DNA from: Ostreococcus lucimarinus
Taxonomy: Eukaryota
Length of the DNA stretch: 64,000 nt
Direction: 5' to 3' (one strand)
Assembly (NCBI GenBank): GCA_000092065.1
Contig: CP000582.1
Below, one piece after another: positions 1 to 64,000 of this stretch (position 1 is its first letter; each line of letters begins with the position of its first letter). The notes under the pieces were generated by a model, which was given only the letters and a program-made list of their open reading frames with translations, was not told where the DNA came from and did not search any database. The position numbers were made by a program, and so were the translations under genes.

Positions 1-1130
1 CAAATTTACATCTCTCCATGTGTGTCCCATCTTCTCTGCGGTTGTGCACGCATGTTGCCCTAGTAGTAGATTGTTCAATTTTCTAAAATGAACCAATGGT
101 GATGTCAATAAAGCGTGACTCATGAGGGCAGACTTGATCAGTGAAATCATACCAGATGCACCATCGAGGTGCCCTAAATTGGTATGTAAACTACCAAATC
201 CTATGTTTGAAGTGCGAGATGGGTCTTCAAAACAGAATATACGCTGGTATGCACCGATTTCTATTGCGTCGCCAAGTGGCTCACCTAGTCCAGATGCTTC
301 TACGAATGCAACGTCTGCTGGTAGTATGTTAGCATCAAGCAGTGCACGGTGCACTTTGTACTCAATTGCCGGTCCTCGAAGCGCTCTGAGCGAAGCGCCG
401 CCGCCTTTATGTATACACGAGGACCCCAGGAGCGTGACAAGCATAAATTTGCTACTGGTGGCTTTGTATGTACAGATCATGACTGCACCGACGCCTTCAC
501 CTCGCTCAAATCCGTCCGCTTGAGCATCAAATGTTTTGCATCGACCATCAGCTGGAAACATCTGACGTGCAATATGTAAATCTGATAATTGTCTGTGAAG
601 TATGATATTCGAACTCGCCGCTATGGAGGAGTTAGCATATTCAGGATCTGATGGCACATTCACTTTAGAAGAACTCGTAGCGAGATGAATACAAACTAAT
701 CCTGACGCAGACGCGCAGTCGATAGAGATAGATTCGCCTTGAAACCCAAATGTGTGACTTATTCGATTCGACGCAAAAGCATACGTCGATTCGGACATAC
801 CATGCGCAATATTTGATAGCTTATCGTGGGCAGAGCAGCCTGAATCTGTGAACATCACACGGAACGCTTCGTCCCTTGCCACAGAATCACTGTCATTCGT
901 ACATATACCTACGTATACTGATATTTTTTGCTCGTAAACGCGCGTACTCTTGTCTGAATATGGTACATCGGTAACTTCATGGCACGCTTTCAGCAACTCG
1001 CGCTGTTGCGGTTCAAGAAGTGATCGAACATCAGATCGGCCAATTCCAAAAAAGTTTGAGTCGAAAACGTCAAGCTGTCTTAGGAACGAGCCGTGCCTAC
1101 TATATTCGTGATAGACAAAATCCCGCTTTC
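1..1130 (-). other. Terminal KS (module 14) at the window edge; active-site-deficient, KS0-like
   Basis: The N-terminus IDRWDVERIFS...FDSNFFGIG and the NLGHLDGASGMISLIKSAL motif are normal. The active site reads GESISIDCASASGLV instead of DTACSSSL, with Ser at the Cys position. The HGTGT position reads VEASGLGEPLGDAIE, with the His lost. The C-terminus lies off the window. Confidence 0.6.
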
Positions 1131-4100
1131 TACTAATACCGGTGAAAGAAAATATACGTTCAACATCCCAGCGATCTATGGGGATCTTCCTAATTGCATC
1201 TATACCGTTTGCGATTGCGCCACAAAATTGTACCGGATGCATGATATGTTTGCAATCTGCGTCACCCGTGTGCACTGCGATACATGCCACCGAGCTTATG
1301 ATACCATCCTGAACGACGATACGCATGGGCTCTTTGGCAGATGGTTTGCAATCATCTATTTTTTGCCGAAGAGTCGTCTTATGGATAAATTTTGATAACG
1401 ATGTGATTGTTGGATGGTCAAACGCAACTGTTGACGGCAATGGTACGTCAAAGCATATTTCTATGGAACGGGATAGCTCCGTGAGATACATGCTGTCTAA
1501 TCCAGCGTCTATGAATGGCATATTAGCGTCAATAGTGTGTCCGAGAACCCGGCGAACATGATCAGACACAAGGGATTGTGTCTCTGATAACGTGCTGGGA
1601 TGTGTACGATCTGTACACAATAACGTTCGCTTTGAATCCGTTGAAACACCTTGCGACAGTAACGGGATGGACAATTTATCCCAAAGAAACATGTTTGCCA
1701 CTATGGTCGCATCTTGTATCATAACGCTGTTCAAAATCGACAGTATATGTATCCCAACCTTTGTGGGCACTGACCCAATACCAAATCGAGTCAGACTGTC
1801 AAGCTGCAATGCGCTTTGCTTCATCATTCCTGTCAAGTTTACCCACGCTCCCCATTGAACACTAACTTTATCGAGACCTTGATGGTGTGCGTAGTTGCAA
1901 TGTGCATCTAACGAAGAATTGGCAGCGACATAGTTCACTTGCCCAAACGTTCCTAGCAGCACAGAGATCGAGGAGTAATAATCAGTTTGAACTGATAACG
2001 AAGTCGGATCGCGAATACTCGCTAGAGATCCGATTAGTTTCGGAGACACGACGACACGAATCGTATAGGCTGTCTGTTTCGTCGCGATAGCGTCACGAAG
2101 AACACCGGATGCAAAGAATGAACGATTAACTTGAACTCGAGAATTGTGCCATGTATTGTCTGAGTAGTGGCAGTTATCAACGGAATCAACAGTTACTGAA
2201 TGGGATGAGGATCCGTTCCAAACGACAACAGAGTATGAACATCGACCACTTCGGTTCGTCAAGCGAATCAATCGCTGTCCATTCAGCAGTGCTGTGATGT
2301 ACACAAGTTTACCAATTTCACCAGCACCGTGTACTTCTGTTTGATTATTTTTACATTGATTGTTGCGACGCATGTTAGCCGGCGATGAATGAGTCGAACA
2401 TAGATTCGGCGTAAACGCAAGATGACCAACGGCACTGACGTGGCGAAGACGCGCTGTGGTGTTTGAGATACCCGACGGATGTATGCGAGCTGAATCTCCC
2501 GTACATACGGCATATGTTGTATTTTTATTTTCGACACAAAACACTCTTGGTAGTGTCGATAGTGTCAGGTCGGATATATGTTTATGTATACTCGATATTG
2601 GCGATGGAAATATGCGTTTTGTGACGGGTGCTGATTTGCTGAGTACACATAGGTGCTTAGATTCGCTCGAAGTTGTGAGCGCACAAATTGAATGCAAAAT
2701 ATTCACAACGGTTGGCAGTGATCCGCATCTGTGGACGCTGCGGCGGTAGTTGCACAATGTATGCCGAACAGTAGTTGTAGCACAAGTGTCGCCATTGGGT
2801 GCAACATTAACTCGAAGCGGGCTCGCCTCCCAGCGAAGAGCATACAAATATTCAACATTTGGAACACTTGAGCGAGATGAAGACGGCGATGTGGATGTGC
2901 ACAATACAGAGTCAGTTGAAATGTGCAAGAACACCTCTGGTGTAAACGTTGACCAATTTTGACGTGAATAATTGTACTTGAACCTGTGATCACTCAGTAT
3001 AATGCAACACATGAGCGTGTCGTGTTGCGCATATTGAACGGTACATGAACGTCGATATAGCTCAACAGTCCGTACATACGCGACGGAGTTACCGCCGGTG
3101 AACGTATCGAGCAAAGTACATCGCAAACGATGTTGAGGCTTTTCATGGTATTCATTGGATTCAACATGAATATCTGCAGAAGACAAGCCGCCATGCATTT
3201 CGCGAAATTTAACAAACCCTTGTTCTGCATCAGCGTATGCTGCCACTGTGTTCGCATTTAACCCGACGCCGTGTTCACCAGCTCGCACAGTAGCATGTGT
3301 GCTAGCGATAGCGTTGGATTGAGCATCAATTACTTTATATCCCGACCCGTACACGAGAACTTTATTTGATTTTAGATATGCATCTAAAACTTTCGAGGCA
3401 TACACAGTTGAAAGTACTACATTTTTTAGTGAGAGTTCTGTGGTACGATCATCCAAAATCAAACATGTGGCATCAGATGCAACTTGCAACGGTGATGAAG
3501 TAAGAGCATTTACGGTAGCGTTGAAGCGAATCGAAACACAAGCCATAGTGAGTGTCGATAAAGCGACTGTTGCACGCGAGCTTAGCTGTGATATCCAACA
3601 CTCGATGCTGTGTTGCATGACAGAAGCATCTGGCAAGTATTTCATCACGTAATCGCGTCGAACAGATACGTGTGCGTTCGTTCCTTGAAATGCAAACGCG
3701 CTCACTCCTCGGTTTACGGCGTGTGCATCACATTGCCACGCACTTTGCGTTGCCTGGCGTGGAAGAGCGATTCCGCATCGCTCAGCCGTATCTTGATTCA
3801 GAATACTCTGAATGTGGGTGCTGAGCTGGCATAGGTGCACGAGCGCAGGAGTGTTCAAGCGAAATATGCAATCAACAATGCCACACAGACCCATACCGCC
3901 CGAAGCTGGCTCGGTGTGTCCGCAGCGAGTCTTCATTGCTGAAAAAGTAACGACTGGCAATCTTTTGAGGCTGCTAAGTACGGTGCGCGCTGCGCCAACT
4001 TCTATAGGATCCCCCAGAGACGTGCCAGTACCATGAAGCTCTATACCACCAGAAGAGCTGTTATCATTACCAGACTGGAGCATGGTGTGCAAAATCACGC

Positions 4101-7100
4101 TCTGCTGCGATGGGCCATGGGGGGCTGTGAGAGAGCTTGAGCGTCCATCTTGGTTGACAGAAGATGCAGAAGCGTAAAACATGCAGTAGTCGTCGCGCAC
4201 GCCGTCGCTGTGCGGTGTCAAGAGCAGCAAAGTTGATCCTTCTCCTCGAACGTAGCCGTTTGCAGCCATGTCCAGAGTCTTACATCGCCCATCATCTGCC
4301 AGCATCCCCGCAGTTCTAAAAACAATAGTCGTCGTCGGGTTCAGGGTGATGTTCACGCCGCAACATATCATGCTGTCGCATTCTCCCGTGAGCACTGCGT
4401 TACGCGCTACATGTGATCCAACTAAAGACGACGAGCACGCTGTGTCGATGCTTGCACACGTTCCGCGCAGATTGTATGTGAAAGAAATCCGTCCACACGC
4501 AACACTGAGTGAGCCACCAGTTGCTTGAAGCTTGCCGGCACGAGAGGTGATCGCGCTGTAATCAGTGCTAGATATACCGACAACAACGCCACATCCCTCG
4601 CTATATTGGCCGTTTACTGCATGTGCGCGCCCATCTAAGGCGCGCGCTAGAAGGATGCGCTGCTGTGGGTCCACGGCAGTAGCTTCTGCACGTCGCATTG
4701 AAAACAGGGCAATATCAAAATATTCAATGTTATGGAGAAATCTACCAAACCGTATCAGGGCGTAATCGTCGGCTCTAATATCCCACCGATTTTCAGGCAC
4801 ACCACTTACGTCATCCAGTGCGTGCTGATACTGCCCGGGGCTGCTGACTGATGATATGCACACTTGAGCTGAGTATGTGACATCAATAGTACTATTACGG
4901 AGCACCTGTGCACTTCCGTAATTCGATTTTCCATGCGACAGTTCACCCGCCACGGCTTCTGCAAGTGCATATACGCTAGGATGATCAAATACAACCGTCG
5001 ACGGGAGCTGCACAGCGAATTCATCGTTCAGTCTGCTTCGCAATTCAACGGCGCCGAGTGAGTCAAGACCCGCATCCAACAGTGGCTCCTTTGCATCCAA
5101 TGGTCTACCAACCGCATCATTCACTATACTCGCTACACGTCCCGCAATTTCGTCGCCGTGGATCACGCATGATGGTACGCCACGTTCTCCGGCTGATATC
5201 TTGATCTTGAGTTGTGTGCTATTTTGATCGACGTATGGTGCATTTGGCGGGGAAACCGCACTGTGTGATGTAGGTACACTCCATGCATGTAAGCCGGTTG
5301 CACGCAGTGGGCAAACGGCGTAGATTGAGAACATATTTGGAGGTTGAATGAGAGTGCGTAGCGTTCTCAGCGCAGTGTGTGGGTCAATCACTTCTATCCC
5401 TAGAGATCCAAAGTTTCTGGGTGTACCCACTGCAGAACGCACAGCCATGCCATAGGATCCACCCCAGGGTCCCCACTGGAGACTCATGCACCGCCATCCC
5501 ATCGTCGTGCCGAGTTGAGCGAGTGTGTCGAGCAGTGCGTTAGCACCTGCATAGTTAGTTTGACCCGGCGAGCCGAGCAATGCAGCTATGGACGAGAAGA
5601 AAACATGTGTCAAAGACATTTGAGGGAGATTTTCATGACACACCGCTTGTGCACCTTGTGTTTTGTTTGCAAACGCAATCGAGACTGTGGAAAACGTTTG
5701 CTTCATTAGGATTGAATCTTTGAGAACACCGCTCATGTGCAATACCCGACCGACATTTCGCACACTACACGAAACCAAGCGTTCTGTTTCGCTTCTGACA
5801 CAAAGGTTTACACGTTGGATGGTAAGCAGGGATGTAAATTTTGCCGGCGCGATATGTTTTCCTCTTCCGGAACGCCCCACGAGTACGAAGGGTCTATCAC
5901 AGATGGATGCATTCCATTCATAGATAAGCGCTCCGATGCCACCGACACCACCGGTGTAAATGTCGCTGCACGGGTGTAGAAGCGCATTAGAGTCGCACTG
6001 TGCGATGTGCTTTGCCATCGCTCGACGTGGGTCTCGCCACAACATTTTTGCGTGTAAATTCGGACAGACCTTCGATAACGTCGGCGTGCGGACATGGCGA
6101 TTCGATATTGATTTGGCATGCACCTCGTTCGAATCAGAATTTGAATGAAGAAAGTCGGTTGCTTTTGCGTGCACAATACTTGATGCGCCCAAATCAACGC
6201 ACACTAAACGCTGTGACATCTCATGTGCGCCACTCCTGAAGATACCCCACATGGCACCAGCGACCGGAATACATCGACCGATAGAGCTCTGCGTGTCAGC
6301 ACATAGGCGTGGACAGGCTGACACCAGCTCTGTTGCTGTCGTGCGAATCACGCATAGATTGGAACTTGCATGTAAACTCTGCACGGCAAGAGAAGCCACG
6401 CGTGATGCACTTTGCCTCCCCGCAGCTAAATGCGAGTATACGTTCGTGACACCTTCTGTACGGAGAAGCGGTCCTCTGTATGTGTTCTCGGTTTTCCACG
6501 TGGCGCGATATATCATATCGATGGCGTGTCTTCCTTGCCTCCCACCATAATAGCGCTCTGATCCCATCGCTGCAGGCTCTGAGTGAGACGCAACCTTTTT
6601 GCCCAGTAGTTCGTGCATCGCAAGTTGATTTTCCGTCGCTTGCTGTGCTATATGGTCACTCTGCATCTTTTGCGGCGAGAAGCGTGATAGTGCGTGGTCT
6701 CGGGACCGTGCCAACGAAGTTTGGTGTGTGCAGATTTCGAGACTCACTGGCAAGTGCAATTCAAAGCTATCATCACTGAAAGTATTTAGCCTGAGAGCTG
6801 ATAAGCTCTGCACGTGCGCATCGAGCTCTGCGGCAAACGACTGATCTAGTGTTTGCACCTTTTTACTATGAACTTTGAAGTGCAAATCAAGGCTGGATTT
6901 GGAGACGTTTGCGTAATACACTTTCGGCGATGGAGTTCGTTGCGTGAGCATGGTCTGCACTACTTTACAAGACGTGTGCCCTGCTCGTTGTGACGATACG
7001 GAAATACTGCCGGTAGTTTGCGATATTTTGAACGATAATGCATCGTTGCGCCAAGTATCCAACAAACAGGCAGCATGTATTTGCGTGCGACGCACCACGT

Positions 7101-10100
7101 TAACAGTCATTGTGTGGAGTTGCTTTACACAAGTGAGGGTCAGCTCCAGAAAGCTGGTAGCGGGGAGAACCAAGCGGCCACGAACGCAGTGATCGCGATC
7201 TATATGTCGTGTTTTTAATGGTGGGAGTTGAATCCGTAGGCATTCGCTCGTCTCGACTGCGTGCACGAGCCGCAGGCCAAAGGCAGCATGTGATATCCAA
7301 CACTCGATGCTGTGTTGCATGACAGAAGCATCTGGCAAGTATTTCATCACGTAATCGCGTCGAACAGATACGTGTGCGTTCGTTCCTTGAAATGCAAACG
7401 CGCTCACTCCTCGGTTTACGGCGTGTGCATCACATTGCCACGCACTTTGCGTTGCCTGGCGTGGAAGAGCGATTCCGCATCGCTCAGCCGTATCTTGATT
7501 CAGAATACTCTGAATGTGGGTGCTGAGCTGGCATAGGTGCACGAGCGCAGGAGTGTTCAAGCGAAATATGCAATCAACAATGCCACACAGACCCATACCG
7601 CCCGAAGCTGGCTCGGTGTGTCCGCAGCGAGTCTTCATTGCTGAAAAAGTAACGACTGGCAATCTTTTGAGGCTGCTAAGTACGGTGCGCGCTGCGCCAA
7701 CTTCTATAGGATCCCCCAGAGACGTGCCAGTACCATGAAGCTCTATACCACCAGAAGAGCTGTTATCATTACCAGACTGGAGCATGGTGTGCAAAATCAC
7801 GCTCTGCTGCGATGGGCCATGGGGGGCTGTGAGAGAGCTTGAGCGTCCATCTTGGTTGACAGAAGATGCAGAAGCGTAAAACATGCAGTAGTCGTCGCGC
7901 ACGCCGTCGCTGTGCGGTGTCAAGAGCAGCAACGTTGATCCTTCTCCTCGAACGTAGCCGTTTGCAGCCATGTCCAGAGTCTTACATCGCCCATCATCTG
8001 CCAGCATCCCCGCAGTTCTAAAAACAATAGTCGTCGTCGGGTTCAGGGTGATGTTCACGCCGCAACATATCATGCTGTCGCATTCTCCCGTGAGCACTGC
8101 GTTACGCGCTACATGTGATCCAACTAAAGACGACGAGCACGCTGTGTCGATGCTTGCACACGTTCCGCGCAGATTGTATGTGAAAGAAATCCGTCCACAC
8201 GCAACACTGAGTGAGCCACCAGTTGCTTGAAGCTTGCCGGCACGAGAGGTGATCGCGCTGTAATCAGTGCTAGATATACCGACAACAACGCCACATCCCT
8301 CGCTATATTGGCCGTTTACTGCATGTGCGCGCCCATCTAAGGCGCGCGCTAGAAGGATGCGCTGCTGTGGGTCCACGGCAGTAGCTTCTGCACGTCGCAT
8401 TGAAAACAGGGCAATATCAAAATATTCAATGTTATGGAGAAATCTACCAAACCGTATCAGGGCGTAATCGTCGGCTCTAATATCCCACCGATTTTCAGGC
8501 ACACCACTTACGTCATCCAGTGCGTGCTGATACTGCCCGGGGCTGCTGACTGATGATATGCACACTTGAGCTGAGTACGTGACATCAATAGTACTATTAC
8601 GGAGCACCTGTGCACTTCCGTAATTCGATTTTCCATGCGACAGTTCACCCGCCACGGCTTCTGCAAGTGCATATACGCTAGGATGATCAAATACAACCGT
8701 CGACGGGAGCTGCACAGCGAATTCATCGTTCAGTCTGCTTCGCAATTCAACGGCGCCGAGTGAGTCAAGACCCGCATCCAACAGTGGCTCCTTTGCATCC
8801 AATGGTCTACCAACCGCATCATTCACTATACTCGCTACACGTCCCGCAATTTCGTCGCCGTGGATCACGCATGATGGTACGCCACGTTCTCCGGCTGATA
8901 TCTTGATCTTGAGTTGTGTGCTATTTTGATCGACGTATGGTGCATTTGGCGGGGAAACCGCACTGTGTGATGTAGATACACTCCATGCATGTAAGCCGGT
9001 TGCACGCAGTGGGCAAACGGCGTAGATTGAGAACATATTTGGAGGTTGAATGAGAGTGCGTAGCGTTCTCAGCGCAGTGTGTGGGTCAATCACTTCTATC
9101 CCTAGAGATCCAAAGTTTCTGGGTGTACCCACTGCAGAACGCACAGCCATGCCATAGGATCCACCCCAGGGTCCCCACTGGAGACTCATGCACCGCCATC
9201 CCATCGTCGTGCCGAGTTGAGCGAGTGTGTCGAGCAGTGCGTTAGCACCTGCATAGTTAGTTTGACCCGGCGAGCCGAGCAATGCAGCTATGGACGAGAA
9301 GAAAACATGTGTCAAAGACATTTGAGGGAGATTTTCATGACACACCGCTTGTGCACCTTGTGTTTTGTTTGCAAACGCAATCGAGACTGTGGAAAACGTT
9401 TGCTTCATTAGGATTGAATCTTTGAGAACACCGCTCATGTGCAATACCCGACCGACATTTCGCACACTACACGAAACCAAGCGTTCTGTTTCGCTTCTGA
9501 CACAAAGGTTTACACGTTGGATGGTAAGCAGGGATGTAAATTTTGCCGGCGCGATATGTTTTCCTCTTCCGGAACGCCCCACGAGTACGAAGGGTCTATC
9601 ACAGATGGATGCATTCCATTCATAGATAAGCGCTCCGATGCCACCGACACCACCGGTGTAAATGTCGCTGCACGGGTGTAGAAGCGCATTAGAGTCGCAC
9701 TGTGCGATGTGCTTTGCCATCGCTCGACGTGGGTCTCGCCACAACATTTTTGCGTGTAAATTCGGACAGACCTTCGATAACGTCGGCGTGCGGACATGGC
9801 GATTCGATATTGATTTGGCATGCACCTCGTTCGAATCAGAATTTGAATGAAGAAAGTCGGTTGCTTTTGCGTGCACAATACTTGATGCGCCCAAATCAAC
9901 GCACACTAAACGCTGTGACATCTCATGTGCGCCACTCCTGAAGATACCCCACATGGCACCAGCGACCGGAATACATCGACCGATAGAGCTCTGCGTGTCA
10001 GCACATAGGCGTGGACAGGCTGACACCAGCTCTGTTGCTGTCGTGCGAATCACGCATAGATTGGAACTTGCATGTAAACTCTGCACGGCAAGAGAAGCCA

Positions 10101-40100: not shown

Positions 40101-43100
40101 CGGCGTCGTGGAGGGGGATATCAGGGTCAACATCGAAACCAATCAATGTGCAAACCATCTTATGAAGTAAACTCAGACAGTCCTGGGTGGTGTGACACCG
40201 CACGCCTGACGTAGTAAACTTTTTCTGACGCTCTAGCGTTGTTTGTTTATCAGCAATTTTCCGAGTGTGCACACTTTGCAAGCCGGTCGTATGTTTCTCA
40301 AGTAGCCAATCAGCCTTCGTCGAGTCACTGGTGAATGCGTTCTGGCATACGACGAGCACTGCGCCACATGATAGAGGTGCATTTTCTATTCTGCGCATGG
40401 TACTTTTCAGCGCAGCGAGGGCAGTCTTTGGGTCCATGAAGCCAACTCCTAGACGCGACATATTTCGTTCTATGTACTTATTACGGATCGCCATTCCGAC
40501 CTTCCCCCAGGCGCCCCATTGAACGCTGCACACAGGGCGACCAGCTGTGTGCTCAAATTGAGCGAGAGTATCCAAGGCAGAATTTGCGCATGAATAATTT
40601 GCCTGTCCTGGTGAACCTATTCGTGCCGTTATGGAAGAAAAGAAAATGGCGCTTAAAAGCGGTTTGCTTGAGTATAGATCAGCGTCAATGGTGAGAACTT
40701 TAGGAGCAAAGACTTCACGAATGCGTGCTGGCGTTTGTCGCAGAAGCAAGGCATCCGATGTACAACCTGCCGCATGCACGAGTCGAATTGAAGAGCACTT
40801 ATCAGTGAGCATGCAGTTATGGTTATGTGTTCGCCAGACATACATGAAACACTCAATGTAAAACGTCCGCTCATGCACGTAAATCTGAGATTTGCCTGAA
40901 CGATTCGGTAACTTGATGCATTGCATCTTCGTACGGATCAGCCTTCCAATGCCCCCGGACCCTCCTATTATCGTAAGTTGCTCTGTTTTTTTACCTTTCT
41001 CGTCACTTAAGCGCAGATATAAGGCTGAAGGTACGGTTTTATCGAAAAATTTGTGTTGATCTACGTATGAGTTTGACGGAACTATATTCTCTTGCACCGC
41101 TACCTTGCAAATTTGATGCAGCTGTTTGGTAGCGTTTGTACAATGAATGAGCTCGATGTGTCGACGCATTAGGCTTGTAAGTAAGGCGATATCGGCTGCA
41201 ACCTGCATCACTGAACATGCTTGTATTTTCCTTGGAACGGGTTCAAAGTCTGCATCTTGACATTCATAGAAAATTGTGATATTCTGGATTTTGCAGGGCG
41301 CTTTGCACGTTAAGCTACTAGCTTTGAACTGGGAATCGAAACCTAAAAGTTTGTCTAAACTCATACTGCAACCTGAGATTGTGTAACTTCCGACTGTTTT
41401 CACCTTGGAAACAGACTCAAAGATGGAGACACCACAACTAGCAAACCAACGCAATCCCTTGATCGCAATCTTCTGTGATACTGCGTCACCGATTACAGCA
41501 TTGACTGCTATTATGAAGGCTGCGGATGTGTTCGAAAGACTAGCTGCATTGTGATGAAGATCATAGGAACTGATAGAATGCGTGACGACATGCACATTTG
41601 AGCGGAGAAGAGGCGCGATTGTGGGCGAATCGAACTGCTTCATACTTGTATCGCACTTCTTGGATGCATGCTTTATCCTTGCACGACAATGCTCACCTTG
41701 TGAAGTTTCCACTTTGATCGCACCGGTTATGGCGCGGACAGAAACTTCTATACGTTGGTGGTACTGCAAAAGTAATGGCCTCACAATCGCAAGATCTTGA
41801 ACCATTGCAGTGTGTAAATCAAATGTACCGCACGCTTGAGCCATGTAATCTATGTACCCAGCCGCTGGAAATAACGGTTTTCCATGGATGCAATGGTCCG
41901 ACAGCGCTGGTGTCGGCTGATGGAGGCGCGAAACAATCGAATTGTGGCACACTTTTATCGACGCACCCGAGCTGTGCACTGGAGATGCAAACCAGCACTG
42001 ATTGCAGGAGAATAGCTTGGATGCGACACTATTGCAAGAACAGCCAGAATTTCGTGCTGTCGCCGATAATATCGCGTGAGCGTTTGTACCTTGAAATGCA
42101 AACGAGCTCGTTCCCGTCTTCGCATTTGCTTTATGCACATGCTGGCACGAAGCAGAAGCAGATCGCGGCACAGCAACGTTTGGCTCTTGAGAGGGATTTA
42201 TTGACATTGCGTGCCACGCATGTACGTTGAGTAAGCGCATGTGCATTATGCCAGTGTGTCTTTGCATTTCTACGGCACGTGATGCACTTATGAGCCCCGC
42301 CATACCGGCAGCACATTCAGCGTGCCCCATGTTCGTTTTGATTGCATGCAATCGTAAAGTTTCTGCCTGACCCAAAACAGACATCGCGCCTCCTACTTCT
42401 ATGGGGTCACCAAGTGGCGTCCCAGTTCCATGCATTTCAAGGGCCCGCACTTCTAATGGCCGAGTCGAAGCGTTTGCCAGGGCTGATTTGATGACTCTGG
42501 TCTGCGATGGTCCATTTGGCGCCGTCAACGAGCTCGTTCGACCGTCTTGATTTACTGCGGTCCCACACAGCCACACGCTCTCGCTATTGACATTCGCGGT
42601 TGGACTCAGTAATAATGTATCACAGCTTTCGGCTCGCACGTAACCATCCGCGGCCGCATCGAGCGTCTTGCAGCGGCCATCAGGCGCTAGCATACCAGCG
42701 CGTAGAAACATGGCCGTCGTAGTCTCGGTGAGGATGAGGTTCACGCCACCCGTTACAGTTGAGTCGCACTCACTCTGAAATACAGATGCCACACCGAGAT
42801 GGACTGCCACAAGGGACGAGGAGCAGGCAGTGTCGATACTCATCGCCGATCCTGTGAGATCGAATGTGAAGCATATCCGTCCAGAAGCGACACTCAACGC
42901 TTGTGATGTAGCATCTAGTGCACTTGCGGGGACACTTGTGGTTGTGCGCATGACCTCACCATACTCCATCCAAGCGATTCCAATAAACACAGAAGTGTGA
43001 GATATTGTGTATTTCGGTAGACATAGCGAGCTCACGCAGTGTAGTAGCAGACGCTGCTGTGGGTCCATGCTGATCGCCTCTGCTTTTCCAATTCGGAAAC

Positions 43101-46100
43101 CTTGCCAGTCGAACATCACGATGCTTTCAACGAAGCAGCCCACTTTTAAACGTGGGTCGCTTTCTCCAAGTTCATCCGACAAAATGCGCCGTGCTGTTGG
43201 CATGAGGGCAATACTGTCGCAGTTTGCGACGCCCGCTGCCCCATGTGAAGTTCCAGATGACACAGCAAGCACACACTGAAGGTTGGGTTGCACAAATGGT
43301 GCGTTTTGTGGTGAACGACACAGTGCTTCTATCCCGTGCGCTTCGTCACAGCTGTGTTCAACATTTTGCATTAAATATGTGCACAATTTTGAAATGGTGG
43401 GGAAGTCAAATACCAAAGATGGTGCTACTTGCCTGTCGAAGTGTGTCGATATTTTACTGGCTAACTCAATCGCAGATAAAGAATCCAAGCCGGCGTCGTG
43501 GAGGGGGATATCAGGGTCAACATCGAAACCAATCAATGTGCAAACCATCTTATGAAGTAAACTCAGACAGTCCTGGGTGGTGTGACACCGCACGCCTGAC
43601 GTAGTAAACTTTTTCTGACGCTCTAGCGTTGTTTGTTTATCAGCAATTTTCCGAGTGTGCACACTTTGCAAGCCGGTCGTATGTTTCTCAAGTAGCCAAT
43701 CAGCCTTCGTCGAGTCACTGGTGAATGCGTTCTGGCATACGACGAGCACTGCGCCACATGATAGAGGTGCATTTTCTATTCTGCGCATGGTACTTTTCAG
43801 CGCAGCGAGGGCAGTCTTTGGGTCCATGAAGCCAACTCCTAGACGCGACATATTTCGTTCTATGTACTTATTACGGATCGCCATTCCGACCTTCCCCCAG
43901 GCGCCCCATTGAACGCTGCACACAGGGCGACCAGCTGTGTGCTCAAATTGAGCGAGAGTATCCAAGGCAGAATTTGCGCATGAATAATTTGCCTGTCCTG
44001 GTGAACCTATTCGTGCCGTTATGGAAGAAAAGAAAATGGCGCTTAAAAGCGGTTTGCTTGAGTATAGATCAGCGTCAATGGTGAGAACTTTAGGAGCAAA
44101 GACTTCACGAATGCGTGCTGGCGTTTGTCGCAGAAGCAAGGCATCCGATGTACAACCTGCCGCATGAATAAAGCATAATGAATCCACAGCGTATCGATTT
44201 ATCTGTATATTAGTGTGTACGTAGGATTGTACAAACGACACAACGCTGTCACTGTACTGATGCTGTCTTAGCATACAGTTTGTTCGTCCAAAGCGACTCA
44301 TTAGTGTATGTGGTGAGCTGTACCTCATTAGGAAAGTACTAGTGAGTTGCCCTGTAGCTCCTGTTCCTCCCATGATGAAGTAAGACCGATTAAGATCGCA
44401 GGAGGCTATGAATTCACTTTTGTTACGATCGAGCTTGATCTTATGTATTTTGCGATTAGAGCACGCCAACTGTTGAGCAAGAGATTCTTTTAGGCACCGG
44501 TGCAATACATGAAATTTTCTCAGACTTTTGTATTGCGTAAAAGCCTGTAGTAGGATGCTAGAGTGTTGAAACGGCGCATCTTCACCCCGTACAACTAGGG
44601 AAACATTTTCTTTGATGCATTCAGTCTCAGCGCATCGGAACAGTGATGCAAGATACTTGATGGAATTCGTCTCACATAGCTCAACTCGACCTTCCATTTG
44701 CAGCACATAGGCGTGCAATACCATCACCGCATGAGCGACTATTTTTTCACGCATCAGTGATATAAATCGCGCGTGTGCTTGAGTGGTACAAGGTCTTAAG
44801 CTTGTGCTTGGTGAAAATCTTGACACGTACTTGACAATATTGATTCCATTGCTCAAATTATTTTTATGTGGATACCCATTTGCCTTTGTGCGTAGCATTT
44901 TGCATTTCACTTTGAATAACACCACGCAGCCAACCAGATGATTGCCAAGACTCTCACCATGGCTGTCCAATTCAATGTTACAGCGCGTACTTATGCGCCG
45001 CACTGACGTGATCTCAGGAGGAGATGTGCTACAAAACTTTATTATGGTCGGCAGCATCGTCACACACTTTGATACTTTCTGTCCATCTATGACTCCCACA
45101 CTGATCTGCAGAGTCGCGTCAATAATTGAGGGCACATGGCCTGATGTGAAGTTTGTTGATGCAGTCTCAACATGAGCGAGTGCAATGTTCAACCGACGCC
45201 CACTGTCGAAGATCGGGCTCAATGTCTGCGAAGAGAAAACATAAAGTGTGTTGTGTCTATCGCACTTCTTGGATGCATGCTTTATCCTTGCACGACAATG
45301 CTCACCTTGTGAAGTTTCCACTTTGATCGCACCGGTTATGGCGCGGACAGAAACTTCTATACGTTGGTGGTACTGCAAAAGTAATGGCCTCACAATCGCA
45401 AGATCTTGAACCATTGCAGTGTGTAAATCAAATGTACCGCACGCTTGAGCCATGTAATCTATGTACCCAGCCGCTGGAAATAACGGTTTTCCATGGATGC
45501 AATGGTCCGACAGCGCTGGTGTCGGCTGATGGAGGCGCGAAACAATCGAATTGTGGCACACTTTTATCGACGCACCCGAGCTGTGCACTGGAGATGCAAA
45601 CCAGCACTGATTGCAGGAGAATAGCTTGGATGCGACACTATTGCAAGAACAGCCAGAATTTCGTGCTGTCGCCGATAATATCGCGTGAGCGTTTGTACCT
45701 TGAAATGCAAACGAGCTCGTTCCCGTCTTCGCATTTGCTTTATGCACATGCTGGCACGAAGCAGAAGCAGATCGCGGCACAGCAACGTTTGGCTCTTGAG
45801 AGGGATTTATTGACATTGCGTGCCACGCATGTACGTTGAGTAAGCGCATGTGCATTATGCCAGTGTGTCTTTGCATTTCTACGGCACGTGATGCACTTAT
45901 GAGCCCCGCCATACCGGCAGCACATTCAGCGTGCCCCATGTTCGTTTTGATTGCATGCAATCGTAAAGTTTCTGCCTGACCCAAAACAGACATCGCGCCT
46001 CCTACTTCTATGGGGTCACCAAGTGGCGTCCCAGTTCCATGCATTTCAAGGGCCCGCACTTCTAATGGCCGAGTCGAAGCGTTTGCCAGGGCTGATTTGA

Positions 46101-49100
46101 TGACTCTGGTCTGCGATGGTCCATTTGGCGCCGTCAACGAGCTCGTTCGACCGTCTTGATTTACTGCGGTCCCACACAGCCACACGCTCTCGCTATTGAC
46201 ATTCGCGGTTGGACTCAGTAATAATGTATCACAGCTTTCGGCTCGCACGTAACCATCCGCGGCCGCATCGAGCGTCTTGCAGCGGCCATCAGGCGCTAGC
46301 ATACCAGCGCGTAGAAACATGGCCGTCGTAGTCTCGGTGAGGATGAGGTTCACGCCACCCGTTACAGTTGAGTCGCACTCACTCTGAAATACAGATGCCA
46401 CACCGAGATGGACTGCCACAAGGGACGAGGAGCAGGCAGTGTCGATACTCATCGCCGATCCTGTGAGATCGAATGTGAAGCATATCCGTCCAGAAGCGAC
46501 ACTCAACGCTTGTGATGTAGCATCTAGTGCACTTGCGGGGACACTTGTGGTTGTGCGCATGACCTCACCATACTCCATCCAAGCGATTCCAATAAACACA
46601 GAAGTGTGAGATATTGTGTATTTCGGTAGACATAGCGAGCTCACGCAGTGTAGTAGCAGACGCTGCTGTGGGTCCATGCTGATCGCCTCTGCTTTTCCAA
46701 TTCGGAAACCTTGCCAGTCGAACATCACGATGCTTTCAACGAAGCAGCCCACTTTTAAACGTGGGTCGCTTTCTCCAAGTTCATCCGACAAAATGCGCCG
46801 TGCTGTTGGCATGAGGGCAATACTGTCGCAGTTTGCGACGCCCGCTGCCCCATGTGAAGTTCCAGATGACACAGCAAGCACACACTGAAGGTTGGGTTGC
46901 ACAAATGGTGCGTTTTGTGGTGAACGACACAGTGCTTCTATCCCGTGCGCTTCGTCACAGCTGTGTTCAACATTTTGCATTAAATATGTGCACAATTTTG
47001 AAATGGTGGGGAAGTCAAATACCAAAGATGGTGCTACTTGCCTGTCGAAGTGTGTCGATATTTTACTGGCTAACTCAATCGCAGATAAAGAATCCAAGCC
47101 GGCGTCGTGGAGGGGGATATCAGGGTCAACATCGAAACCAATCAATGTGCAAACCATCTTATGAAGTAAACTCAGACAGTCCTGGGTGGTGTGACACCGC
47201 ACGCCTGACGTAGTAAACTTTTTCTGACGCTCTAGCGTTGTTTGTTTATCAGCAATTTTCCGAGTGTGCACACTTTGCAAGCCGGTCGTATGTTTCTCAA
47301 GTAGCCAATCAGCCTTCGTCGAGTCACTGGTGAATGCGTTCTGGCATACGACGAGCACTGCGCCACATGATAGAGGTGCATTTTCTATTCTGCGCATGGT
47401 ACTTTTCAGCGCAGCGAGGGCAGTCTTTGGGTCCATGAAGCCAACTCCTAGACGCGACATATTTCGTTCTATGTACTTATTACGGATCGCCATTCCGACC
47501 TTCCCCCAGGCGCCCCATTGAACGCTGCACACAGGGCGACCAGCTGTGTGCTCAAATTGAGCGAGAGTATCCAAGGCAGAATTTGCGCATGAATAATTTG
47601 CCTGTCCTGGTGAACCTATTCGTGCCGTTATGGAAGAAAAGAAAATGGCGCTTAAAAGCGGTTTGCTTGAGTATAGATCAGCGTCAATGGTGAGAACTTT
47701 AGGAGCAAAGACTTCACGAATGCGTGCTGGCGTTTGTCGCAGAAGCAAGGCATCCGATGTACAACCTGCCGCATGAATAAAGCATAATGAATCCACAGCG
47801 TATCGATTTATCTGTATATTAGTGTGTACGTAGGATTGTACAAACGACACAACGCTGTCACTGTACTGATGCTGTCTTAGCATACAGTTTGTTCGTCCAA
47901 AGCGACTCATTAGTGTATGTGGTGAGCTGTACCTCATTAGGAAAGTACTAGTGAGTTGCCCTGTAGCTCCTGTTCCTCCCATGATGAAGTAAGACCGATT
48001 AAGATCGCAGGAGGCTATGAATTCACTTTTGTTACGATCGAGCTTGATCTTATGTATTTTGCGATTAGAGCACGCCAACTGTTGAGCAAGAGATTCTTTC
48101 AGGCACCGGTGCAATACATGAAATTTTCTCAGACTTTTGTATTGCGTAAAAGCCTGTAGTAGGATGCTAGAGTGTTGAAACGGCGCATCTTCACCCCGTA
48201 CAACTAGGGAAACATTTTCTTTGATGCATTCAGTCTCAGCGCATCGGAACAGTGATGCAAGATACTTGATGGAATTCGTCTCACATAGCTCAACTCGACC
48301 TTCCATTTGCAGCACATAGGCGTGCAATACCATCACCGCATGAGCGACTATTTTTTCACGCATCAGTGATATAAATCGCGCGTGTGCTTGAGTGGTACAA
48401 GGTCTTAAGCTTGTGCTTGGTGAAAATCTTGACACGTACTTGACAATATTGATTCCATTGCTCAAATTATTTTTATGTGGATACCCATTTGCCTTTGTGC
48501 GTAGCATTTTGCATTTCACTTTGAATAACACCACGCAGCCAACCAGATGATTGCCAAGACTCTCACCATGGCTGTCCAATTCAATGTTACAGCGCGTACT
48601 TATGCGCCGCACTGACGTGATCTCAGGAGGAGATGTGCTACAAAACTTTATTATGGTCGGCAGCATCGTCACACACTTTGATACTTTCTGTCCATCTATG
48701 ACTCCCACACTGATCTGCAGAGTCGCGTCAATAATTGAGGGCACATGGCCTGATGTGAAGTTTGTTGATGCAGTCTCAACATGAGCGAGTGCAATGTTCA
48801 ACCGACGCCCACTGTCGAAGATCGGGCTCAATGTCTGCGAAGAGAAAACATAAAGTGTGTTGTGTCTATCGCACTTCTTGGATGCATGCTTTATCCTTGC
48901 ACGACAATGCTCACCTTGTGAAGTTTCCACTTTGATCGCACCGGTTATGGCGCGGACAGAAACTTCTATACGTTGGTGGTACTGCAAAAGTAATGGCCTC
49001 ACAATCGCAAGATCTTGAACCATTGCAGTGTGTAAATCAAATGTACCGCACGCTTGAGCCATGTAATCTATGTACCCAGCCGCTGGAAATAACGGTTTTC

Positions 49101-52100
49101 CATGGATGCAATGGTCCGACAGCACTGGTGTCGGCTGATGGAGGCGCGAAACAATCGAATTGTGGCACACTTTTATCGACGCACCCGAGCTGTGCACTGG
49201 AGATGCAAACCAGCACTGATTGCAGGAGAATAGCTTGGATGCGACACTATTGCAAGAACAGCCAGAATTTCGTGCTGTCGCCGATAATATCGCGTGAGCG
49301 TTTGTACCTTGAAATGCAAACGAGCTCGTTCCCGTCTTCGCATTTGCTTTATGCACATGCTGGCACGAAGCAGAAGCAGATCGCGGCACAGCAACGTTTG
49401 GCTCTTGAGAGGGATTTATTGACATTGCGTGCCACGCATGTACGTTGAGTAAGCGCATGTGCATTATGCCAGTGTGTCTTTGCATTTCTACGGCACGTGA
49501 TGCACTTATGAGCCCCGCCATACCGGCAGCACATTCAGCGTGCCCCATGTTCGTTTTGATTGCATGCAATCGTAAAGTTTCTGCCTGACCCAAAACAGAC
49601 ATCGCGCCTCCTACTTCTATGGGGTCACCAAGTGGCGTCCCAGTTCCATGCATTTCAAGGGCCCGCACTTCTAATGGCCGAGTCGAAGCGTTTGCCAGGG
49701 CTGATTTGATGACTCTGGTCTGCGATGGTCCATTTGGCGCCGTCAACGAGCTCGTTCGACCGTCTTGATTTACTGCGGTCCCACACAGCCACACGCTCTC
49801 GCTATTGACATTCGCGGTTGGACTCAGTAATAATGTATCACAGCTTTCGGCTCGCACGTAACCATCCGCGGCCGCATCGAGCGTCTTGCAGCGGCCATCA
49901 GGCGCTAGCATACCAGCGCGTAGAAACATGGCCGTCGTAGTCTCGGTGAGGATGAGGTTCACGCCACCCGTTACAGTTGAGTCGCACTCACTCTGAAATA
50001 CAGATGCCACACCGAGATGGACTGCCACAAGGGACGAGGAGCAGGCAGTGTCGATACTCATCGCCGGTCCTGTGAGATCGAATGTGAAGCATATCCGTCC
50101 AGAAGCGACACTCAACGCTTGTGATGTAGCATCTAGTGCACTTGCGGGGACACTTGTGGTTGTGCGCATGACCTCACCATACTCCATCCAAGCGATTCCA
50201 ATAAACACAGAAGTGTGAGATATTGTGTATTTCGGTAGACATAGCGAGCTCACGCAGTGTAGTAGCAGACGCTGCTGTGGGTCCATGCTGATCGCTTCTG
50301 CTTTTCCAATTCGGAAACCTTGCCAATCAAAGTTCGACACGTTTCTCAGTTTCCACATCGCGCACGACAAGTTTTCATCAAAGTGATAATAATGATCTGT
50401 TTCGAGAAGCTGTGTCAATTGAGTAGAAACCAGCACGTGTGTTCGCGTAGCTAACAAAAATAGATGATTCTCAGAGTGTTGACGCAATTCGTGTTCAACT
50501 GTCGCGTTCTGTGTCGTCTCCGTAGACTGTCTATATGTTGACTGATCCGTGTTCGTAATAAACGCTGTGATGTCATTGACCGTAGGATAGTCATACAGAA
50601 ATGTTGTCGGTAAGTCAATCTGGAAATACTCACTCATTTCAGCGATTATCACTACTGTCTGTGCTGAAGAAAGTCCCAGTGAATGTATAATCGGCTCATA
50701 CACACATTCAAGTGGAGAAAGTGAATGTGCGCAGCTTTGCAAAGCCTGTAGAACAAGCCATTTATCGTGCTTCTCAACACACTTTTTGGGATGTTTGCCG
50801 GAGAAAGCGCATGTCTGGTTATTTTGATTCGAAGACAGTCGATGTGACGATGGCATTCCAAACAGAAGCACGTCACAAAGAGACGTGACCTGCTCTTTTG
50901 CAATATTGTTATCTTCAACAGTTGGTGCGAGGTCTATATCGCTTCGATATCTTTGTTCGGCAAGCCGAGCACACGGGTACAGTATCGTACCATCGAAAGT
51001 ATCATGCATGTTAGTAACATCTCGTGAATCACTTTTTACGAGTTGGTATGGAGTTCCCGAACAGTTGAAAAAATCCGTCCTCTGTTGAAAGTCTCGCATT
51101 AATGCAAACTTGGAAGCGACTAGCATTTTACCATAATGAAATGGGAGGGTAACAAGTATTGGGCACAGTTTATTGATTTTGGTTTTCGTATCAATCAAGT
51201 CAGTTTGTCTCTCTGCTTCAGCCTCGGCGACGAGAAAAAATATCGAAATACCAGTTGTTGACCCTCCCAGTATGAAACTATCATTATCATTCTCGAGAAG
51301 GAGTCTTATGCGCTCAGCTGGATAAAGCTGTGTATTCAGTCGTTCCACGAATTCAGCCACTTTTGCACGAGTCCATCCACGAAACGCGAACATGTGCACG
51401 CGATTGCAAAGTGACTGATTTCTCAAATCGTTGTCACAAAATACAGTCATATGCCTGACCGTGGACTTTGCCCGAATGGATAACCATAGAAGAAACTTTG
51501 CAATTAATATAGGATACGCCCAGTGCATCCAAGAGTAAGTGAACTTTGCACCAGTCGAAAAAATATTTGAAGAAACTTCCTGTGAGATCCAGCCTTGCGA
51601 GTGCCCGATACTATGGTAGAAAGGTTGAATCTTTCGAAAGAGCAACTTGGAGCTTTTGAGAAACGTACTGAAGTGTACTATGTAGGTCAGTGAAGATGAT
51701 ATCGACGACTCCGCAAATTTATCAATCAATCTTACTTTCATCGGAATTGATTTTGAATAGCATTGTATTCGAATGTGATAGGCATCTGAATTATCGATCG
51801 AGGTTTCATCCAACGCACTGAGACCTTGGCCAGCAAAATTGAATGCATATTCCGTTGACCGTGGCGCAATCTTCGAAACATTATACGAAAAATGCGGTCT
51901 GCGAAGAAGCAGAGATCCATGTCGATAAACTGTTGGATCAAACCGTCTTCTACTCCGCGCCTGTTGAAATAGTTTTGCAGTATGCAAGGTTTCCTCAGGG
52001 CACTTTCCATAACTTTGCATTGAAGCAAAGTAATAGAAGGAGCTCAAATCAACGTCATGATCGAATGCGTCAGTCTGAACACTAAAAAGCTCATCGAAAA

Positions 52101-56016: not shown

Positions 56017-56862
56017 ATGCGTCCTTGCTCCTCCCAGCCACTTTCGAAACCGCCGTTTGGGAAGGACGGCTTTTCGAAATATTGGACAAAACATCGACCT
56101 TTGAAACTTCCAAAACGTGCTCGGCATGCATGTAGAGTGCTCAGCCCACTGGAGCGCTTAGAAGAACTCGGAACTCGACGTTTTGGTGTCATCTTTGAAC
56201 TTGAAGGTATTATAGTGCCCAGTTGTGCAAAAGCAGACCGAGAAGAGTGGCAACAGATAGCGCGTGAGGAAGGCCTCGAACAACCTGCTGAGTATCAACT
56301 CCGGGCGGCTCTTCGGAAGAAGACAGATCATGCGGTCTCTCGCGTATTCAACTGGGCATCCGAGCCACAGCAAGTGCGGTTCTTGACTCAGCGCAAAAGC
56401 GCACTTTTCTGCAAAAGAACGGAAACCACTGATCACAGAGCCCATGAGCATGTTCTAGCATTTTTGCGGCTACTCGATGGCTTCGACGTGCCCTGTGCTA
56501 TTTATTCTTCACAACTCTCGAGCGAAGAGCTAACAGTTTTGTTGCGTCGTTTGCAACTGACAGGGTACTTCAAGACGGAATCAGTGATAGGTCGTGACGA
56601 CGTACAAAGTGGCTTACCAGACACTGAATACTATTTAGTTGCAGCGCGTGCGCTTTTTCGACCGATCTCCAAATGTATTGTCATAAGTGACCACCACCTC
56701 GCAATCGAAGCTACGACTGAAATAGGAATGAAGTGTGTAATTGTCAATGGCGTCGACTCTACCTGGGAGTTGAGAGGTGCAAACATGGTTGTGCCGTCGT
56801 TAGAGTGGATATCGTTTAGGAACTTACAAAATATTTTTAGCTTAGATGTATACGAAAGTTAG
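56017..56862 (+). CDS. HAD-superfamily hydrolase-like protein (CbbY/beta-phosphoglucomutase-like); motif I is degenerate (FELEG rather than FDxDG)
   Basis: 281-aa ORF. GVIFELEGIIV at the motif I position and KCIVISDHHLAIEATTEIGMKCVIV resembling motif IV. Possible N-terminal presequence. Confidence 0.5.
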   Translation: MRPCSSQPLSKPPFGKDGFSKYWTKHRPLKLPKRARHACRVLSPLERLEELGTRRFGVIFELEGIIVPSCAKADREEWQQIAREEGLEQPAEYQLRAALRKKTDHAVSRVFNWASEPQQVRFLTQRKSALFCKRTETTDHRAHEHVLAFLRLLDGFDVPCAIYSSQLSSEELTVLLRRLQLTGYFKTESVIGRDDVQSGLPDTEYYLVAARALFRPISKCIVISDHHLAIEATTEIGMKCVIVNGVDSTWELRGANMVVPSLEWISFRNLQNIFSLDVYES

Positions 56863-63150: not shown

Positions 63151-64000
63151 TCGTACAGCTTAGATAACACCGTGCGTCTAAGGCTACACGTTCGAAGAAT
63201 CAGCCACACACAATTCTAAACTTCGTTTTAATCTCGACTTGGTCCTGCTTCGCACACCCTGTACTCCTCCACGAGATTCTCAACGGCTTCCTGACTATCA
63301 GCAAATTCTCCCAAGTCCTGATACCATTGTAACTCTCATCAACTAATCGAGGAAACGCGACTCACCGAAAATAAATCAAACTGTTCATACTGATCGAGGA
63401 ATGCCCGACGCCTTATTAGCTTATCGTACTGCTCCAAACTTCGTGAGAACCAGTGACGTATGCTGGTGTGAAAGGTGTCAGCAGGACGACGCAAAGAGCT
63501 GCATTATAGCTCACCTTGTGTGATTTGCGAGCATGAGTCCGTTCAGACTTGCCGTTTTCGCGATATACGGAGAACTCCTCGCTAAAGCAACTTGATAGTT
63601 GACAGGTGCCCAAGTGATAAAATTTGCCAGTTTCCGTTCTCGTATACGCTGTAAGCTTTTGTGTATCTGTTTTGATGTGAGTGTACAAGTGCGGAACACC
63701 TTGGAATATGAATACCTGCATGGGTTCAATATTTCCTTGAACGATGTTCAAAATGGATATGAATTTGCCCTAAAGTTGGCTTTAAGCAAAAGAAAGGCGG
63801 GAAGCACGGAAAGGGATGGACCTCTTTGACACCTGTGCCCGCATACGAGGAACACATCACATTTTTGCTTTGTAGGAGTCTTCGCATGACATCAAGGGTA
63901 GAAGTTTTGCGTGTACTGTACAATAAATACATGAGAACATATGAATATTGAAGTTGTGCCGCATGGACCTGCTTTCCGTTGCGGAAACACCAGCGAGAGG

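Follow-up and report, generated by a model that had tools for sequence, protein, structure and literature searches.

Giant polyketide synthase (PKS) genes are a conserved feature of a low-GC outlier region, over whose PKS segment transcript tracks have been presented (2026 preprint, bioRxiv 10.1101/2025.04.21.649811). One such gene, OluPKS3 of Ostreococcus lucimarinus (JGI protein 30000), was dissected by Shelest et al. (2015, BMC Genomics 16:1015, PMC4661987), who classed its product as a trans-acyltransferase (trans-AT) synthase with 14 ketosynthase (KS) domains. The published string begins ACP-(KS-DH-KR-ACP)x3-KS-KR-ACP-KS-KR-ACP-KS-ACP-C and continues after the condensation (C) domain as KS-KR-ACP-KS-KR-ACP-KS-DH-KR-ACP-KS-ER-KR-ACP-(KS-DH-KR-ACP)x2-KS-KR-ACP-KS-P-loop (PMC4661987; ACP, acyl carrier protein; DH, dehydratase; KR, ketoreductase; ER, enoylreductase). 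The same study reported the duplication of modules 1-3 and 11-13, the presence of HHxxxD in a central C domain lacking an adenylation (A) domain, and a terminal KS0 (OluPKS3-KS14, with DCASASG and SGLGE; Table S3). It also described orthologues in O. tauri and Micromonas, placed the chlorophyte KSs in clades of their own, with AT loss inferred to be independent, and inferred trans-ATs without naming one. The deposited protein, XP_001416378.1, has 18,193 residues and a mass of 1,995 kDa (PMC6681478).

Here we describe the analysis of a 64,000-nucleotide stretch of the O. lucimarinus CCE9901 genome (chromosome 2, contig CP000582.1; hereafter the window), most of which is taken up by a single PKS gene. 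The gene is OluPKS3. Its novelty, implied by a first reading of the window made from the letters and an open reading frame (ORF) list (the sequence-only reading), is not justified: its annotation dates back to the publication of the genome, RefSeq holds it as an 18,193-amino acid "polyketide synthase", and it was dissected under its present name in 2015. Since then the architecture, the duplications, the C domain and the KS0 have been known, and the locus is the subject of the 2026 preprint, which leaves little discovery value in these features. Among known proteins of the green lineage the PKS ranks with the largest, and its host is an abundant marine picoeukaryote. We hold with high confidence the combined reading developed below, namely the identity with OluPKS3, an assembly-line mechanism based on AT-less modules and recent duplication of modules.

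Reading frame and identity of the gene

Six-frame translation showed the minus strand to be free of stop codons from position 52287 to position 1, a run of 17,429 codons; no other open stretch in the window exceeds 916. Since about 5% of random codons are stops, a frame of this length is not due to chance. The first ATG lies at 52257-52255, and the single-exon coding sequence spans 1-52257 on the minus strand, specifying residues 1-17,419 of 18,193. The remaining 774 codons fall past window position 1. They were recovered by scanning metagenomes with the last 280 window-encoded residues: two contigs, L006 and L007, match window positions 1-840 with 100% identity, and on both the frame runs on for 774 codons before reaching a stop. 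The total of 18,203 open codons corresponds to 18,193 amino acids from the ATG and equals the RefSeq length. Thus, an intronless minus-strand frame of about 52 kb and more than 17,000 codons, starting at 52257 and running past the window edge, exists as the sequence-only reading had proposed. That reading had also remarked on the silence of the ORF list about this gene. Indeed, the list contains only two ORFs of at least 600 amino acids, neither of them the PKS, because the program omits ORFs that run off the window end.

The ORFs flanking the PKS (52514-55258, minus strand; 56017-56859, plus strand) are exact matches to the O. lucimarinus proteins XP_001416379.1 and XP_001416137.1, respectively. 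These matches, the agreement of the reconstructed length with that published for XP_001416378.1, and the agreement of the domain string and KS14 motifs with those published for OluPKS3 together establish the identity of the gene. Our independent annotation reproduces the whole published description. It adds an N-terminal GHSQG domain and DH-like regions in modules 4, 7, 8 and 10, and it reinterprets the "P-loop hydrolase", which we take for a CurM-type sulfotransferase.

Modules, repeats and the condensation domain

The protein is a modular type I PKS, with repeated KS domains carrying the Cys-His-His triad, carrier domains, and KR, DH and ER domains inside the modules. The translation was cut at its 13 DTACSS motifs and the module-sized pieces were scanned against Pfam, which returned 14 KS domains (PF00109/PF02801). 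The DTACSS cysteine, the H(G/S)TGT histidine and the downstream xGH histidine are all kept in KS1 to KS13. KS14 (1-1245, cut by the window edge) has DCASASG for DTACSS and SGLGE for HGTGT; because its cysteine is shifted and SGLGE replaces HGTGT, it is a non-elongating KS0, and the elongating modules number 13. KS8, which has GTNCM for GTNAH, was considered as a possible dead KS and discarded, the real second catalytic histidine (xGH) being present throughout KS1-13. No module gave an acyltransferase match (PF00698) at E 0.01 or better, and modules of about 1,200 residues leave no room for such a domain. Of the earlier proposal of 14 KS modules without an in-module AT, the KS count and the lack of AT therefore stand, and the number of elongating modules is corrected to 13 plus one KS0. 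The motif GHSxG occurs a single time in the whole protein, as GHSQG at ORF codon 228 (window 51592-51606), confined to the N-terminal loading region as had been stated.

A local hidden Markov model (HMM) detected 14 carrier domains, comprising a loading ACP and one ACP per module. The loading ACP (50539-50748, minus strand; GLSS for GxDS) was found with a model made from the other ACPs (E 3.7e-10); the published string also starts with an ACP. KR domains are present in 12 modules, with the catalytic tyrosine in 12/12 and the aspartate of the LDD-type motif in all but KR5. PKS_DH_N passed the Pfam cutoff in modules 1-3, 11 and 12, came within 1-3 bits of it in modules 4, 8 and 9, and was weak in module 10; a DH histidine of the HxxxGxxxxP type can be recognised in modules 1-4 and 7-12 and not in modules 5 and 13. 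The GTNAH motif (codon 994) precedes the DH histidine motif (codon 1059) by 61 residues, consistent with the KS-to-DH linker of about 50 residues estimated previously, and the KS C-terminal linker family PF16197 leaves merely a 25-residue trace after the KS. ER matches, all weak, were confined to module 10. Reduction states are mixed, as the same reading had it: DH-KR in modules 1-3, 9, 11 and 12, DH-like-KR in modules 4, 7 and 8, KR only in modules 5 and 13, DH-ER-KR in module 10 and no reducing domain in module 6.

All modules lie on the minus strand. Module 1 (KS-DH-KR-ACP, 46951-50577) has an intact Cys/His/His set and gave strong matches to KS (3.9e-43), PKS_DH_N (2.7e-9), KR (2.9e-22) and PP-binding (5e-12); module 2 (KS-DH-KR-ACP, 43342-46968) is its near-identical copy. 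The KS and KR-ACP parts of module 3 (KS-DH-KR-ACP, 39952-43359) are identical to those of module 2, its middle has diverged, and its second DH motif is not recognisable. Module 4 (KS-(DH-like)-KR-ACP, 36094-39978) scores 26.6 bits against a PKS_DH_N cutoff of 27 and contains the motifs HQVLNRTCLP and DACLQ. Module 5 (KS-KR-ACP, 32542-36132) has no recognisable DH and includes an 836-nt KS patch 99.8% identical to KS1-3. It is followed by module 6 (KS-ACP, 30247-32520; KS 8e-38, PP-binding match, ACP at codons 7260-7347). Beyond the C domain, module 7 (KS-KR-ACP with a DH-like motif only, 23959-27552) was delimited with Pfam, the local ACP HMM and motifs. Module 8 (KS-(DH-like)-KR-ACP, 20353-24003) reaches 26.5 bits with PKS_DH_N, near threshold, and has an intact Cys/His/His set, and module 9 (KS-DH-KR-ACP, 16903-20418) carries HSVHGKAILP. 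In module 10 (KS-(weak DH)-ER-KR-ACP, 12328-16893) the ER lies at about 13378-13887 (ADH_zinc_N_2 2.4e-4, ADH_zinc_N 5.6e-4), the KR scores 4e-32, and the DH is represented by a PKS_DH_N match at E 0.035 and the motif DHSVNHTPVLP. Module 11 (KS-DH-KR-ACP, 8623-12375, from Pfam) and its near-identical copy module 12 (KS-DH-KR-ACP, 4921-8673) precede module 13 (KS-KR-ACP, 1354-4971), the last elongating module, whose KS is identical to KS12 and which lacks a DH motif.

The likeness between neighbouring modules reflects two tandem repeats. Repeat A (41649-50331, minus strand) covers modules 1-3 with about 2.4 copies of a 3,609-bp unit (self-BLAST, 99.88% over 5,074 nt), and repeat B (3587-12269, minus strand) covers modules 11-13 with about 2.35 copies of a 3,702-bp unit (99.88% over 4,981 nt). 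Additional patches of 100% identity lie in the KR-ACP parts of modules 1-3, and there is the 99.8% patch in KS5. Judged by this near-identity, modules 1-3 and 11-13 are evidently very recent tandem duplications or gene-conversion tracts. GC content is 0.49-0.52 in the duplicated tracts, compared to 0.45 in unique modules and 0.43 at the 5' end, a rise that would fit GC-biased gene conversion between the repeats.

The same gene arrangement is found on many marine metagenome contigs, among which L001 follows the window collinearly for 20.6 kb at 99.97% identity. L001 is collinear across repeat A and reproduces the structure of modules 1-3 at that same identity; its called product is 1,234 amino acids shorter than the reference, corresponding, by product length, to one unit fewer. 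In three other contigs (L002, L003 and L005), the sequence passes directly from module 1 into module 3. In L006 and L007, positions 1-10840 correspond to window positions 1-14542, one 3,702-bp unit fewer. These copy-number differences may represent a natural 13-KS allele or the collapse of 99.9%-identical repeats in short-read assemblies.

Between modules 6 and 7 lies a C domain of the nonribosomal peptide synthetase (NRPS) type (28954-30207, minus strand; PF00668, E 1.4e-22). Its HHxxxD motif is intact, as HHIAGD at ORF codon 7484 (29821-29838), and is aligned (HHI..D) in a match to the Txo1 C domain in the PDB (E 6e-4). The approximately 470 residues separating the C domain from KS7 (27553-28953, minus strand) matched nothing in Pfam or the PDB. 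Their C-terminal half (27553-28236, about 240 residues) showed a weak collinear alignment to the AMP-binding domain of a PKS fragment, P0027, scoring 11.5 bits in phmmer against a maximum of 2.2 in 200 shuffles and placing WFRTLD in register with WFKTGD. The C-terminal subdomain of this adenylation-like stub is absent, and a sensitive local HMM detected no carrier domain from codon 7347 to codon 9371. A single-sequence AlphaFold2 model of the region following the C domain reached a mean confidence (pLDDT) of 32. A word-indexed protein search with the C domain and the region after it returned nothing from a database in which giant orthologues may be missing. We read the C domain and stub as the probable remnant of an NRPS module, comprising a degenerate, truncated A domain of the adenylate-forming (ANL) type, with the carrier (T) domain lost. 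The KS-ACP-only module of the sequence-only reading is accordingly correct as to module 6, to which the intact C domain and the adenylation-like remnant that come after it must be added.

Loading, release and the proposed mechanism

The N-terminal domain of about 490 residues (50788-52257, minus strand), missing from the published string, contains the sequence GHSQGWISQEV. Submitted as a single sequence, the first 500 or so residues had no match in Pfam or the PDB. Two relatives of the domain were detectable: the metagenomic protein P0017, found by local phmmer against fetched proteins, and P0147, found among 1.84 billion representative proteins. Both are about 35% identical to the window sequence, with GHSQGWISQEV invariant, and the gene for P0017 has the same upstream RPE65-GST neighbour as the window gene. 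A word-indexed search with this region was empty as well; the database matches were all of about 2,100 residues or less, and giant orthologues may be missing, so that the empty searches are not evidence of orphan status. A profile built from the three sequences matched in the PDB only the acetyltransferase region of the fungal fatty acid synthase (FAS) beta subunit (ten sequences, E 0.058-0.67), with about 160 collinear columns that include GHSQG. The N-terminus of P0017, alone of the three, also matched the SAT family (PF16073) at E 7e-4 and 19.7 bits, below the cutoff of 22.8, and FAS_AT_central at E 0.31. Identity with a canonical malonyl-AT was rejected: hhalign against 62 modular-PKS malonyl-ATs aligned the GHSxG motif only, with a probability of 6%. 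The three homologues differ at the oxyanion GQG motif. Taken together, these data suggest that the domain is probably a divergent starter-type acyltransferase rather than a canonical extender AT. Thus, the loading AT of the sequence-only reading survives as a conserved GHSQG domain in front of an ACP, with borderline similarity to SAT and fungal FAS acyltransferases, and not as a canonical extender AT.

At the syntenic site of a related metagenomic organism (L009, 5835-8891) there is only a stub of 1,018 residues with the composition AT-like-ACP-KS. The stub ends in a weak match to a transposase helix-turn-helix and is followed by unrelated genes (Toc75). It looks like a truncated remnant of a giant PKS.

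The release end lies beyond the window and was examined on L006. There, KS0 is followed by a sulfotransferase (ST; PF13469, 5.6e-29) whose best-matching structures were the ST domains of CurM (4gbm, E 3.6e-53) and of olefin synthase (OLS; 4gox, E 5.8e-49), with the PRSGST and DKSP motifs aligned. By these matches, the published "P-loop NTP hydrolase" evidently shows close homology to the CurM and OLS activating sulfotransferases. The literature found on Ostreococcus PKSs names neither a sulfotransferase nor a loading domain; an ST-containing PKS has been mentioned in Emiliania (PMC7073580). Downstream of the ST, a C-terminal domain of about 290 residues (L006 12290-13162) completes the protein. 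Within it, the spacing around LVTRGLGVY resembles by eye that of a thioesterase (TE) with a replaced nucleophile serine; Pfam and PDB searches being empty, no thioesterase is claimed.

In the curacin and OLS pathways, the last ACP-bound intermediate is sulfonated on its beta-hydroxyl by the ST before the TE hydrolyses and decarboxylates it to yield a terminal alkene. In OluPKS3 the substrate hydroxyl should exist, because module 13 ends in KR-ACP, and sulfation of the product appears likely. Alkene-forming release would be only an analogy, because KS0 separates the ACP from the ST and a thioesterase signature is missing. We know from the literature found of no terminal-alkene or sulfated product from Ostreococcus.

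We propose that the SAT/FAS-AT-like domain primes the first ACP and that the 13 module ACPs receive malonyl units in trans from a transferase whose gene lies elsewhere. Thirteen collinear extensions would then produce a linear chain of about C28 if the starter is acetyl, mostly olefinic or hydroxylated, with one keto position (from module 6) and one saturated position (from module 10). The sulfotransferase would sulfonate the beta-hydroxyl left by module 13, giving either a sulfate ester or, if decarboxylative elimination follows as it does for curacin and olefin synthase, a terminal alkene. That an abundant, non-toxic picoalga uses a 2-MDa enzyme with SAT-like priming and a CurM-type ST finish to make a linear polyene/polyol of about C27-C28, ending as sulfate ester or terminal alkene, is offered as a tentative prediction that may well be wrong. 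If true, it would constitute a eukaryotic counterpart of the off-loading used by cyanobacterial olefin synthases and curacin synthase, with KS0 and the C-terminal domain replacing the canonical thioesterase. The probable loading domain, the NRPS remnant and the CurM-type ST turn an "unknown polyketide" into a metabolomics prediction, that of a sulfated or terminal-alkene long chain.

Several observations weigh against this scheme. An intact C domain without an acceptor carrier has a role that the scheme leaves unexplained, and module-product collinearity is an assumption. No DH call in modules 4, 7, 8 and 10 exceeds the threshold. The matches behind the N-terminal AT assignment are sub-threshold, and the AlphaFold2 model of the domain, made from the three-sequence alignment, has a pLDDT of 31. 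Some 440 residues of KS0 stand between ACP13 and the ST, which is thus not placed directly after the last KR-ACP, and the final 290 or so residues show no Pfam match at E 10 or better, no relevant PDB match and no GxSxG. No stand-alone trans-AT is encoded in the 64-kb window. Finally, the link of these PKS genes to any metabolite is still unproven (bioRxiv 10.1101/2025.04.21.649811).

The C domain raises the question of whether the enzyme consists of two functional halves, the chain from modules 1-6 being handed off or released by the C domain as an ester or amide of a free or tethered nucleophile, and modules 7-13 building a second chain or processing the conjugate, so that no single 13-extension chain is made. 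The retention of HHIAGD, the position of the C domain directly after the only non-reducing KS-ACP module, the lack of a carrier before KS7 and the truncated, degenerate look of the adenylation-like stub would all agree with such a division. However, the ORF is unbroken and the KS7 triad normal, so that direct transfer from ACP6 to KS7 is simplest; no acceptor substrate can be identified, and the C domain may have been conserved as a structural relic. We consider the division into halves unlikely. Marginally less probable still is a variant of the loading step that dispenses with a separate trans-AT and has the N-terminal GHSQG domain load both malonyl and starter units onto all 14 carriers of a homodimer. 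The domain is the only one with GHSxG in 18,193 residues, it is conserved in relatives, and no trans-AT is named in the literature found on algal AT-less PKSs. Yet its profile likeness is to starter and acetyl transacylases only, the 6% probability obtained with the malonyl-AT profile and the unconserved GQG do not favour malonyl transfer, and reach to the ACPs along a 2-MDa chain seems implausible.

The integrity of the locus could also be doubted: if the gene were in decay, as a relic or pseudogene, or if its near-identical modules were an assembly artefact, the real enzyme would be shorter or non-functional. The contigs that skip from module 1 to module 3, those with one 3,702-bp unit fewer (L006 and L007, and L001 by product length), the truncated stub in the relative L009 and the degenerate domains of the enzyme itself (the A-like stub and the DH of modules 5 and 13) can be cited in this sense. 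But 54.6 kb without a stop or frameshift cannot persist without selection, the 13 elongating KSs and all KRs keep their catalytic residues, and transcript tracks cover the PKS region (bioRxiv 10.1101/2025.04.21.649811). Furthermore, L001 independently shows the repeats of modules 1-3, and the collapse of highly similar repeats is expected in short-read metagenome contigs, not in the reference. We regard decay or artefact as very improbable. A bacterial origin of the DNA, by contamination or very recent transfer, would account for the absence of introns, for an assembly-line architecture typical of bacteria and for the many bacterial PKSs among the matches listed. This is the least credible alternative and can practically be dismissed: the gene has eukaryotic genes on either side in a finished chromosome, the arrangement recurs on independent metagenome contigs, green algae (Bathycoccus, Picochlorum, Ostreobium, Elliptochloris) are among the top named matches listed, and orthologues are reported in O. 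tauri and Micromonas (Shelest et al. 2015). We thus retain the reading of a single AT-less assembly line with recently duplicated modules.

Genomic setting and comparison with known synthases

Directly upstream of the PKS, on the same strand, lies the gene for XP_001416379.1 (52514-55258; 914 amino acids), in which a carotenoid-cleavage dioxygenase (RPE65, E 1e-107) is fused to a C-terminal, thioredoxin-like domain of the glutathione S-transferase (GST) N-terminal type. An RPE65-GST gene also precedes the homologue of the PKS start in the related organism (L009 2849-5458), the pairing being conserved. Further along the window are short ORFs of a glucokinase (PF02685, 56886-58044, minus strand) and of a tubulin (PF00091, about 63.3-64.0 kb), in both cases separated by non-coding gaps. 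These fragments belong to housekeeping genes rich in introns, of the kind that characterises the outlier chromosome region; the PKS does sit beside intron-containing genes, as the sequence-only reading had noted. Between them, a pogo/Tc5-type transposase of 877 amino acids (60108-62741, plus strand, within about 59.9-63.1 kb) combines HTH_Tnp_Tc5 and DDE_1 domains. On contig L003, window position 59922 is adjoined by window 62510-63140 in reverse complement, so that part of the natural population lacks the transposase element region or carries it rearranged. A 244-bp stretch (63136-63379) is missing from L001, which is otherwise 99.97%-100% identical, and marks an indel polymorphism near the tubulin-like exon fragments. 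With a GC content of about 0.47, a pogo-like transposase and neighbours split into short exons, the window has the character of the low-GC "big outlier" region of chromosome 2.

OluPKS3 works like a trans-AT assembly line by virtue of its AT-less modules. This likeness, claimed by the sequence-only reading without distinction, holds in function; kinship with the bacterial trans-AT clade is not shown. Among the matches listed, the top named relatives include algal AT-less PKSs, followed by many bacterial cis-AT PKSs, and in the PDB KS1 resembles KS structures of the cis-AT (CurL, DEBS) and trans-AT types to about the same degree. Bacterial trans-AT PKSs such as bacillaene PksJ/L and the K3DAK4-type bimodule (7ZMA) resemble OluPKS3 in their AT-less modules, KS0 and embedded NRPS elements; unlike them, OluPKS3 has no beta-branching cassette or methyltransferase, and its KS-to-DH spacer is short. 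A metagenomic KS locus with 36% identity (L008) turned out to be a PKS fragment that is unrelated and carries an AT-like region inside its module; it was set aside.

At its two ends, OluPKS3 invites comparison with different systems. The SAT domains of fungal non-reducing PKSs (PF16073) and the fungal FAS beta AT share with its N-terminal domain the location directly before an ACP, and the fungal FAS AT shares in addition the GHSQG nucleophile motif, in both cases at sub-threshold similarity (E 0.058 against the PDB; 19.7 bits against a cutoff of 22.8). In the ACP-ST-TE arrangements of CurM (curacin A) and of OLS from Synechococcus PCC 7002, the ST is homologous, with the 3'-phosphoadenosine-5'-phosphosulfate (PAPS)-binding motifs aligned, and is likewise preceded by KR-ACP; OluPKS3 differs by the KS0 inserted between ACP and ST and by the absence of a TE match after the ST.

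The PKZILLA-type giant PKSs of toxic haptophytes and dinoflagellates, set beside OluPKS3 here by description, are also eukaryotic microalgal, AT-less enzymes of megadalton size making long linear chains. OluPKS3 is distinguished from them by its lack of introns and its 13 elongating modules, and Ostreococcus is not known to be toxic. The orthologues in other Mamiellales, OtaPKS1 and OtaPKS4 of O. tauri and MicPKS2 of Micromonas commoda, lie in the BOC1 outlier regions and have the same AT-less multimodular organisation and the same low-GC location (bioRxiv 10.1101/2025.04.21.649811). The O. tauri and Micromonas orthologues share with OluPKS3 the terminal KS0 and P-loop, internal module duplications and a strong structural variability between strains; they differ in module number and order, OtaPKS1 and MicPKS2 having 9 KS domains.

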